NCBI GenBank assembly: GCA_016234725.1
Contig: JACRAK010000025.1
Coordinates: 5,713-69,712 of the forward strand
Origin: Candidatus Azambacteria bacterium
GTDB taxonomy: Bacteria > Patescibacteriota > Minisyncoccia > GWC2-36-17 > WO2-46-25
Length of the DNA stretch: 64,000 bases
Direction: 5' to 3'
Part shown: positions 59,201 to 59,334 of the stretch, in pieces
How the letters are laid out: every line of letters starts with the position of its first letter
Numbering within the stretch: the first letter of the stretch is position 1
Notes under the pieces: generated by a model
The model's input: only the letters and a program-made list of their open reading frames with translations
Database searches by the model: none
Told to the model about the DNA's origin: nothing
Translations under genes and position numbers: made by a program

Positions 59201-59334
59201 GGCGAGCATCTTCAACCCTTTCTTTTATCTTAACCTGCCTGCCGGTAGGCAGGCGGAAGCGCAGCCCTTCATTGTTGTATTTTTATATAAAAAAGGGCGT
59301 GAGTGGATTAAAGAAAGGGTTGAGGATGCTCGCC
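59201..59334. repeat. Copy 2 of the repeated structured element (25-bp terminal inverted repeat with one G-U position, conserved core plus an extra internal hairpin), inside the suf operon
   Basis: GGCGAGCATCTTCAACCCTTTCTTT ... AAAGAAAGGGTTGAGGATGCTCGCC. Core TTTTATCTTAAC..GCAGCCCTTCATT..GGGCGTGAGTGGATTAAAGAA matches copy 1. Extra hairpin CTGCCTGCCGGTAGGCAGGC. Confidence 0.7.

Follow-up and report, generated by a model that had tools for sequence, protein, structure and literature searches.

The DNA considered here, referred to below as the window, is a stretch of 64,000 nucleotides from Candidatus Azambacteria (contig JACRAK010000025.1) that carries on its minus strand a suf operon for Fe-S assembly, in which a long imperfect hairpin separates sufD from sufS. 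This hairpin belongs to a dispersed family of palindromes with a common anatomy, covarying stems, and polymorphic insertion sites, and it is absent from the suf operons of four relatives. It is probably one copy of a non-coding mobile repeat resembling a MITE, or miniature inverted-repeat transposable element. The genes of the operon, in the order of transcription, are:

62102-62500, minus strand: Rrf2 gene (Pfam)
61376-62098, minus strand: SufC gene (Pfam)
59994-61379, minus strand: SufB gene (Pfam)
59374-59997, minus strand: sufD, short form, 207 aa (Pfam SUFBD_core, E = 1.7e-38), the 5' neighbour of the element in the operon
57922-59154, minus strand: sufS, cysteine desulfurase (Pfam Aminotran_5, E = 6.7e-150), the 3' neighbour of the element in the operon

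A gene for the NifU-like SufU follows 3' of sufS on the same strand (Pfam), and the SufD homologues that we retrieved are 199-218 aa long.

The hairpin between sufD and sufS

The gap between sufD and sufS (59155-59373) measures 219 nt. A preliminary description of this DNA had reported that an inverted repeat takes up almost the whole of this gap, that its core recurs in a second copy, and that it holds an extra internal hairpin, and each of these points was borne out. The inverted repeat pairs 59201-59229 with 59306-59334, in arms of 29 nt that are 93% complementary and have 76 nt between them. As minus-strand RNA, a 156-nt segment folds at -68.7 kcal/mol against a shuffle mean of -33.7 (z = -9.5, with 0 of 200 dinucleotide shuffles as good). 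The hairpin proper alone accounts for 61% of the gap, and the whole element, with its outer terminal repeats, runs from 59164 to 59370 (207 nt) and fills 95% of it.

The two strands do not fold equally well. We call core strand the one that reads GGGCGTGAG, which in the window is the plus strand; when the entire 222-nt spacer is folded, it gives -97.3 kcal/mol versus -80.5 (z = -9.2) for the operon strand, which is that of the mRNA. Related loci are cited below by our own numbers, such as L017, which carries the orthologous insertion. The parts of the element and its immediate flanks are:

59157-59163: left 7-bp direct repeat TGTTTAT, a putative target-site duplication beside the sufS start codon (CAT, 59152-59154)
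59164-59179, plus strand: left one of the two terminal inverted repeats (motif 'M'), TTTTGCGTTACGAAAT, for which the family has the consensus CTTTGAATTACGAAAT; it pairs with 59355-59370
59180-59198, plus strand: left spacer, the internal-loop region between M and the stem, conserved with the L017 orthologue and mostly unpaired in the centroid fold
59199-59222, plus strand: 5' arm of the long stem, pyrimidine-rich and specific to this copy
59223-59234, plus strand: left part of the conserved core, TTTTATCTTAAC
59235-59254, plus strand: optional G+C-rich inserted hairpin of 20 nt, CTGCCTGCCGGTAGGCAGGC, absent from copy 1 and from the L017 orthologue
59255-59271, plus strand: middle part of the conserved core, GGAAGCGCAGCCCTTCA
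59272-59292, plus strand: variable A+T-rich terminal loop, different in length and sequence between copies
59293-59312, plus strand: right part of the conserved core, AAGGGCGTGAGTGGATTAAA
59313-59336, plus strand: 3' arm of the long stem, purine-rich
59337-59354, plus strand: right spacer
59355-59370, plus strand: right terminal inverted repeat 'M', ATTTCGTAATTCATAG, with one mismatch against the consensus ATTTCGTAATTCAAAG(T)
59371-59377: right 7-bp direct repeat TGGTTAT, which includes the sufD stop codon (TTA, 59374-59376, plus strand)

The two flanking repeats match at 6 of 7 positions, and the 24 positions of the stem comprise 22 Watson-Crick pairs and two T.G pairs. The other copy in the window is:

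48978-49086, plus strand: copy 1, a short form that lacks terminal repeats and whose 22-bp stem is perfect, located between a UvrD-like helicase-nuclease gene (minus strand) and obg (plus strand)

Both copies have the same orientation and share the blocks TTCTTTTATCTTAAC / GGAAGMGCAGCCCTTCAT / GGGCGTGAGYGGATTAAAGAA, with the extra 20-nt hairpin of the suf copy inserted after TTAAC. Their outer arms (about 22 nt) are unrelated in sequence, yet complementary within each copy. The core words are found at these two sites of the window only, where shuffled sequence would be expected to give 0.01-0.07 matches. A small open reading frame (ORF) in the element was considered and rejected, as the ATG frame of copy 1 is missing from the suf copy and the core is conserved at all three codon positions.

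To see the junction in relatives, we searched for SufD homologues and looked up the contigs that encode them, which gave four related suf operons with identical gene order:

L080, ENA assembly: SufD 83% identical to that of the window; sufD and sufS 1 nt apart
L081, Azambacteria JANLHQ01: SufD 83% identical; sufD and sufS 26 nt apart
L082, Logan: SufD 67% identical; sufD and sufS overlap by 4 nt
L083, Hainich: SufD 64% identical; sufD and sufS overlap by 4 nt

None of the four has a match to the covariance model of the family within 3 kb. The window aligns to L080 at 80-85% identity on both sides, with 59138-59380 unaligned opposite 22 nt, and in the alignment the element-free relatives have the junction ...ATAA(A/C)CAC(T/C)ATG... 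in single copy. JANLHQ01 does have a copy of the family, elsewhere in its genome (L008). The window shares its suf insertion with L017/L035 (metagenome-assembled genome, MAG, H41-bin131) only, so that 2 of 6 related suf operons contain it; all other copies of the family lie in non-suf contexts. The check proposed in the preliminary description, namely whether relatives carry the element in this same spacer, therefore has a divided outcome: the one sister (L017/L035) does, and L080-L083 do not. Between L017 and the window, the flanks are 79-83% and the spacer 86% identical, the core is identical except for the extra hairpin, and 18 bp of the stem have undergone four double compensatory and two wobble changes.

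The same L017 operon has a 160-nt insertion at 3729-3890, between sufB and sufD, whose window counterparts overlap. Inverted repeats of 19 nt, TAGACCCACTGCRTGATAA, delimit this insertion, which has the look of a further small mobile element.

The repeat family, its stem and its core

We scanned one genome per species for the right-hand core, GGGCGTGAGNGGATTAAAGAA, and obtained 25 exact loci, all in six Patescibacteria MAGs (labelled as three Candidatus Azambacteria, one 'Patescibacteria group', and two Saccharibacteria). Single MAGs hold 11 and 8 of these right-hand core matches, and their copy numbers are thus at least 8-11. The query did not include the left and middle blocks, and yet these too are present and invariant in every match that keeps a left half; TTTTATCTTAA is invariant across 20 copies retrieved by the right-hand core alone. 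Metagenomes were scanned with the left and middle blocks and then with a covariance model built from 20 copies, which added about 40 further copies, mainly from Hainich groundwater. Removal of identical sequences leaves 53 distinct copies of 108-214 nt, non-coding and intergenic, with a full unit of about 190-210 nt. As far as sampled, the family is confined to Azambacteria-like Patescibacteria. Our literature search found no description of it, or of small mobile repeats in the Candidate Phyla Radiation (CPR) / Patescibacteria; it is apparently undescribed and represents a new family within a known class, that of MITE / ERIC-like palindromic repeats.

Neither a known RNA family nor a phage or plasmid source accounts for these copies. 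Rfam, including its self-cleaving ribozymes and riboswitches, had no match at gathering score; relaxing the limit to E = 10 yielded only plant and animal microRNA-precursor hairpin models, far below threshold. No plasmid, phage, or viral contig was found to contain the element: three matches to the core pattern fail the covariance model, and the 39 exact 16-mer matches in viral contigs are at about chance level by our own estimate.

Read along the core strand, the unit consists of the 5' arm, TTTTATCTTAA-C, GGAAGCG, CAGCCCTTCA, the loop, AAGGGCGTGAGNGGATTAAA, and the 3' arm. The 5' arm of about 24 nt is pyrimidine-rich (79% C+T), the 3' arm is complementary and purine-rich, and the loop is A+T-rich and 15-22 nt long. 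Inside this stem of about 24 bp lies a core of about 36 near-invariant, asymmetric bases. The consensus fold has a long helix and a short terminal helix (GC-GCCCUU / AAGGGC-GU), with conserved unpaired bases around them. Two points of the core accept extra helices. After CTTAAC, the insert measures 20 nt in the suf copy; that of L020 is about 100 nt long and has an identical stem base. At the other point, about eight copies (e.g., L009, L012, L014, L029, L044, L053, and L068) have a 16-nt hairpin, UCCGCCAGCUGGCGGA, in place of CGGAAGCG, which in one MAG is split by an insert of about 70 nt. L013 has lost the inner hairpin. In L021 (1094-1319, equal to L071 7669-7894), two copies stand back to back in opposite orientation with an overlap of about 5 nt, the second having a divergent stem base (UGGAAUCUCAAC … GGAUGGAGG).

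The stem shows covariation, which we computed on 49 distinct sequences. Standard pairs occupy 98.1% of cells, versus 78.5% when partners are shuffled and about 50% when they are slid by 1-3 columns; changes on both sides were counted in 374 cells against 90 expected, and double compensatory changes occur in all 21 variable pairs of the outer helix. In 36 of 53 copies, the 20 pairs next to the core are Watson-Crick without exception. The arms are not random, being scattered about a consensus near GCCGCCATCNCCTTCAATTCTTTC, and those of some non-orthologous copies are 89% identical; the arms therefore move with the element and diverge afterwards. Two other origins of the arms were tried and rejected. 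Had the core inserted into pre-existing hairpins, 'empty' hairpins with the stem base CTTTC...GAAAG might be expected, and 640 kb of related DNA holds none except for an internally deleted copy. Inverted duplication of the target does not fit either, since empty sites are without arm sequences and non-orthologous copies can share arms.

The core behaves differently from the stem around it. Identities in 13 orthologous pairs are as follows:

Flanks: 79-90%
Arms: 74-77%
Loop: 79%
Left core block: 100% (143/143)
Middle core block: 97% (101/104)
Right core block: 97% (215/222), with the differences mostly at a single variable position

With the core at 97-100% while arms and loop drift at near the flank rate, either selection in place or repeated gene conversion must be at work. 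Variants of the GGAAGCG segment differ at orthologous sites with related arms, and the same variants recur elsewhere in that genome; because core variants are swapped at orthologous sites and recur at other loci, we suggest that gene conversion between copies acts on the core. On its own, gene conversion leaves the identity of the core between species unexplained. It is this invariant core at orthologous sites that is the one unusual feature of the element.

Insertion, probable transcription and possible roles

Several observations argue for mobility. Many copies have, about 18-20 nt beyond the arms, an outer motif that reads CTTTGAATTACGAAAT on the left side and recurs as the complement of this on the right side. 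In the first 229 kb of related DNA, 8 of 8 matches to this M motif were within 80 nt of an element, and the full set of about 640 kb likewise has it beside elements only. Of the 53 copies, 14 have the motif on the left and 16 on the right, with six, the suf copy among them, having it on both sides. We rejected M as a general promoter or leader: there is no enrichment away from elements, and the promoters of the host genome are of the ordinary TTGACA / TGnTATTCT type. Outside the terminal repeats, L052 has a perfect 7-bp direct repeat, TCATAAA; the suf copy matches at 6/7 and its orthologue at 5/7, and several other full copies show no duplication. The contigs L022 and L044, 93-98% identical, have reciprocal insertions about 300 nt apart, each lacking the element of the other, and five further filled/empty pairs were found.

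The region of copy 1 provides another such case. The orthologous region of L060 (about 84% identity) has no element at the position of copy 1 and has a different copy about 230 nt away, directly 5' of the helicase start codon, in opposite orientation and with unrelated arms. The two are independent insertions in one intergenic region.

The terminal repeats are also found on a second, 'type B' small element (L059 2134-2257 and L031 about 2155-2280), which begins with the same CTTTGAATTACGAAA... and has another interior, …CGTTCCGCCTCCG…CTGTACT-ATAGTACAG…; its copy in L059 is flanked by a perfect 6-bp repeat, TTGTTA.

Like a MITE, the family is thus small (below 300 bp) and non-coding, occurs in multiple dispersed copies, and has terminal inverted repeats as well as filled and empty sites. 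Some points weigh against this interpretation. A MITE should have a cognate autonomous insertion sequence (IS) with the same terminal repeats, and in about 640 kb of related loci there is neither a transposase or other autonomous partner with these repeats nor a terminal-repeat pair at IS-like spacing. Only about one-third of copies keep the terminal repeat on a given side, with both retained in the six just mentioned, and clean duplications flank few copies. Some empty sites keep a remnant that resembles the terminal repeat, and some of the presence/absence polymorphisms may therefore be losses and not gains. Invariance of the core in place is not predicted for a decaying selfish element; a dead MITE should decay uniformly. 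Finally, the read-through and any effect on suf are matters that we infer.

At the suf locus, we propose that a full unit inserted at the 5-nt junction of the sufD stop and the sufS start, in an ancestor of the window lineage and one sister species, with a putative duplication of about 7 bp. The element would then be read through from the promoter of rrf2. This sigma-70-type promoter, TTGACA-17-TGGTATTCT (62536-62565), is conserved in the window and five relatives; no terminator-like site turned up on either strand of 58900-59600; the sufD-sufS spacer has no promoter-like site either; and the stem is not followed by a T-run in either direction, where an intrinsic terminator would combine a G+C-rich stem with a T-run. 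For these reasons read-through is most likely. Together with the abutting or overlapping sufD and sufS of relatives, the promoter and the bare spacer also make the co-transcription claimed in the preliminary description a reasonable assumption.

The suf mRNA would accordingly carry, as a passenger, an imperfect hairpin of about 200 nt that is the complement of the core strand. It would lie between the sufD stop and a point 17 nt upstream of the sufS AUG, in place of the 5-nt junction that allows coupled translation, and could uncouple the translation of sufS from that of sufD. The stretch 5' of the AUG is A-rich, without a Shine-Dalgarno sequence, and unpaired in the fold. REP, ERIC, and Correia elements serve as RNase sites or as 3' mRNA stabilisers, and by analogy the hairpin might be a site for a double-strand RNase or a 3' stabiliser of the rrf2-sufCBD part; cleavage by such an RNase, upstream protection, and independent initiation at sufS are all plausible on these grounds. 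The invariant core may be a module for recognition by a protein, at the level of DNA or for the element's own propagation. Recognition of this kind is favoured over a role in host mRNA because the core is conserved equally in both orientations.

Three other explanations have to be weighed. The preliminary description had suggested a cis-regulatory structure dedicated to suf, which would decouple sufSU from sufBCD by processing or differential stability. The element does lie exactly between the two halves of the operon, its mRNA strand is very stable, and two species, by now about 80% identical in the flanks, have both kept it. However, the junction is empty in four relatives that are as close as the sharer or closer (L080, 80-85% at the nucleotide level), the element recurs, in either orientation, in over 40 unrelated settings between genes, and the suf mRNA carries the weaker-folding strand, on which the two T.G mismatches of the plus-strand stem become A.C. 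These observations already largely refute this explanation, which we regard as very unlikely. The copies could instead be independently expressed structured RNAs, or an RNA-mediated mobile element, with the core as a protein-binding or catalytic module and the stem as a helix for processing or stability. A near-invariant core with conserved junction bases inside a strongly covarying helix would suit such RNAs, as would helical extensions located exactly at the predicted hairpin tips, a conserved G.U that changes to A-U or G-C in 10 copies, and the better fold of the core strand in 40 of 53 copies. Mismatches of the inner 20 bp are G.U-compatible on the core strand more often than on the other, by 17:4 (p = 0.007), but the excess comes to 7:0 in copies whose core strand coincides with that of the host mRNA and to 3:3 in antisense copies, so that it may track host transcription; we rejected it as a means of finding the active strand. 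Moreover, the suf copy is without promoter-like or terminator-like signals, no ribozyme or RNA family of Rfam matches even at E up to 10, and the terminal repeats and duplications point to transposition as DNA. Orientation looks random as well: copies lie only 10-60 nt from the genes beside them, which are housekeeping genes (suf, obg, and UvrD-like by Pfam; RNase H-like, nrdG, and nrdD by eye from translations), and relative to the core strand both neighbours are antisense in 21 cases, sense in 13, convergent in four, and divergent in four. We therefore hold structured RNAs to be distinctly improbable.

An element of the host acting at the DNA level, similar to REP/BIME or attC and with mobility secondary, is also unlikely, if somewhat less so. 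Here, the core would bind an architectural protein, topoisomerase, or recombinase of the host, as duplex, cruciform, or single-stranded hairpin DNA. Equal conservation of the core in both orientations to transcription speaks for this, as do arms that stay complementary at orthologous sites (in 18 bp, the window and L017 differ by four double changes). However, complementarity of quasi-palindromic arms could persist without selection through template-switch correction. The core strand is on the G-rich strand in 30 of 46 copies, both window copies included; this 30:16 trend is weak, not significant (p = 0.054), and drawn from copies that are not independent, and on this basis we rejected the idea that orientation follows replication. 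No R/L-box organisation or integrase context was seen, and there is no candidate for the binding protein. As a side note, GC skew is positive on the plus strand over all 64 kb, in stretches of minus-strand genes too, and the window therefore appears to lie on one replichore.

Returning to the mobile repeat that we prefer, a more ambitious thought about its core deserves mention, although we would not expect it to hold: the approximately 36 bases could conceivably be the recognition or catalytic module of a novel CPR system, either a substrate for a dedicated nuclease or recombinase (as structured RNA or single-stranded DNA) or a small ribozyme. If so, the elements would be domesticated or self-maintaining functional units and not decaying MITEs.

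What does this mean for those who work with such genomes? The genomes of CPR bacteria and Patescibacteria are tiny and tightly packed, and still tolerate hairpins of 110-210 nt between coupled genes of essential operons such as that for Fe-S assembly. Movement of the elements takes place on the time-scale at which strains diverge, yet a part of each stays invariant in place. Annotators should be wary of taking hairpins of this kind for operon-specific regulators. The suf operon, which occurs both with a 200-nt hairpin and without one, amounts to a natural experiment that could reveal how mRNA processing and re-initiation without a Shine-Dalgarno sequence are managed, and the element can serve as a compact strain marker.

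Some additional observations concern the neighbouring DNA. After the suf promoter, six genomes share a strongly conserved leader (…ATAGCCAATYTCGGAGTATTTTGGTCGGAATATG; promoter and leader together at 62501-62565, minus strand), a candidate Rrf2 operator. Upstream of this promoter, at 62587-62620, is a perfect 34-nt palindrome, ATCACAAACTCACGCGTACGCGTGAGTTTGTGAT, which is near-identical in L080 (one base different, GTATGC for GTACGC) and absent from four other relatives, where an ordinary terminator hairpin takes its place. At the other end of the operon, the mechanical call for SufU (57570-58148, 192 aa, TTG start) overlaps sufS by 227 nt; because the NifU-like genes of relatives encode 120-123 aa and overlap sufS or adjoin it at 0-20 nt, the true start is probably near 57935. 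Close to copy 1, about 130 nt of the window (48812-48952) are missing from the orthologous region of L060. This insert has 20-nt inverted repeats (48820-48839 / 48928-48947) and a direct repeat, TTGGTAT(C/A)C, at its flanks, and has the look of a further palindromic insertion, unrelated to copy 1 and about 30 nt away from it. The UvrD-like gene itself probably starts at the ATG at 48751 (minus strand) and not at the upstream TTG (48832) of the mechanical ORF list, because homology to L060 stops at that ATG. Elsewhere, the tRNA-Trp gene (11089-11161) is bracketed by a 22-nt inverted repeat, CCCGCCTAAGTTTTTGCGGAGG / CCCCCGCAAAAATTTAGGCGGG (11062-11176), and at 1555-1674 a related repeat, also with the CCCGCCTAAGTTTTT word, encloses 82 nt in which no tRNA was detected. 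Finally, 14847-14892 is a perfect 46-nt palindrome with 23-nt arms and no spacer, CCAATTACCTGTATAATATGCTA|TAGCATATTATACAGGTAATTGG.

Comparison with known elements

TIGR units are arranged in tandem arrays beside a tas (Nop-domain) gene in CPR bacteria and phages, and their loop has box C/D motifs and two variable spacers of 8-12 nt (PMC12045711). Our family resembles TIGR-Tas in its host group and in a stem that is variable yet consistently palindromic around conserved motifs. It differs in that copies are solitary and dispersed among housekeeping genes, with a loop content that is invariant and not spacer-like; RUGAUGA/CUGA boxes are not visible in the family consensus, and nothing resembling a TIGR array is formed.

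The attC sites of integrons are long imperfect hairpins in a setting of cassettes and an integrase, conserved in structure over sequence and folding in a strand-specific manner. The element shares the conserved structure, the variable sequence, and the strand-specific folding. In attC, however, the boxes that are conserved (R''/L''...L'/R') sit at the stem base around a variable centre; here, the arrangement is the reverse, and there is no cassette or integrase context.

The preliminary description called the hairpin 'REP-like', which is the right general category. REP, BIME, and REPIN sequences are extragenic palindromes in operon spacers that stabilise upstream mRNA and bind DNA proteins of the host, and the label fits at that level. 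REP sequences measure 20-40 nt, have a tetranucleotide conserved at the 5' end, and in most cases are associated with a RAYT gene. The present element is five times longer and has a conserved core that is not palindromic, and no RAYT gene turned up, although no systematic search was made for one.

Functionally closest, together with ERIC, are the Correia / NEMIS elements of Neisseria, small MITEs with terminal inverted repeats and a target duplication that sit tight against genes and are co-transcribed with them; we know of no transposase for these. The same size class, terminal inverted repeats, and proximity to genes are found in our family, with a putative target duplication at some copies. 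Long Correia hairpins are substrates of RNase III, and a conserved internal site binds a protein, IHF; no IHF-like consensus is evident by eye in the core here. In Correia, terminal repeats of 26 bp form the stem and the duplication is TA, whereas here the main stem is internal and variable and the putative duplication is about 7 bp.

Lastly, the ERIC / IRU sequences of Enterobacteria and Vibrio are imperfect palindromes of about 110-130 nt, non-coding and intergenic within transcription units, in either orientation. Longer variants arise by internal insertions at fixed sites and shorter ones by internal deletion, and orthologous copies have substitutions that preserve the stem; to our knowledge, no transposase has been assigned to them. 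Our family has no sequence similarity to ERIC / IRU and belongs to another phylum; its stem sequence is nearly saturated with change between copies, about 36 core bases are invariant, and it has outer 16-nt terminal repeats and a putative 6-7-bp duplication, features common to the second element type. What the two have in common are dispersed palindromes in either orientation, insertions at fixed sites, and internal deletion, for which L013 may be compared.

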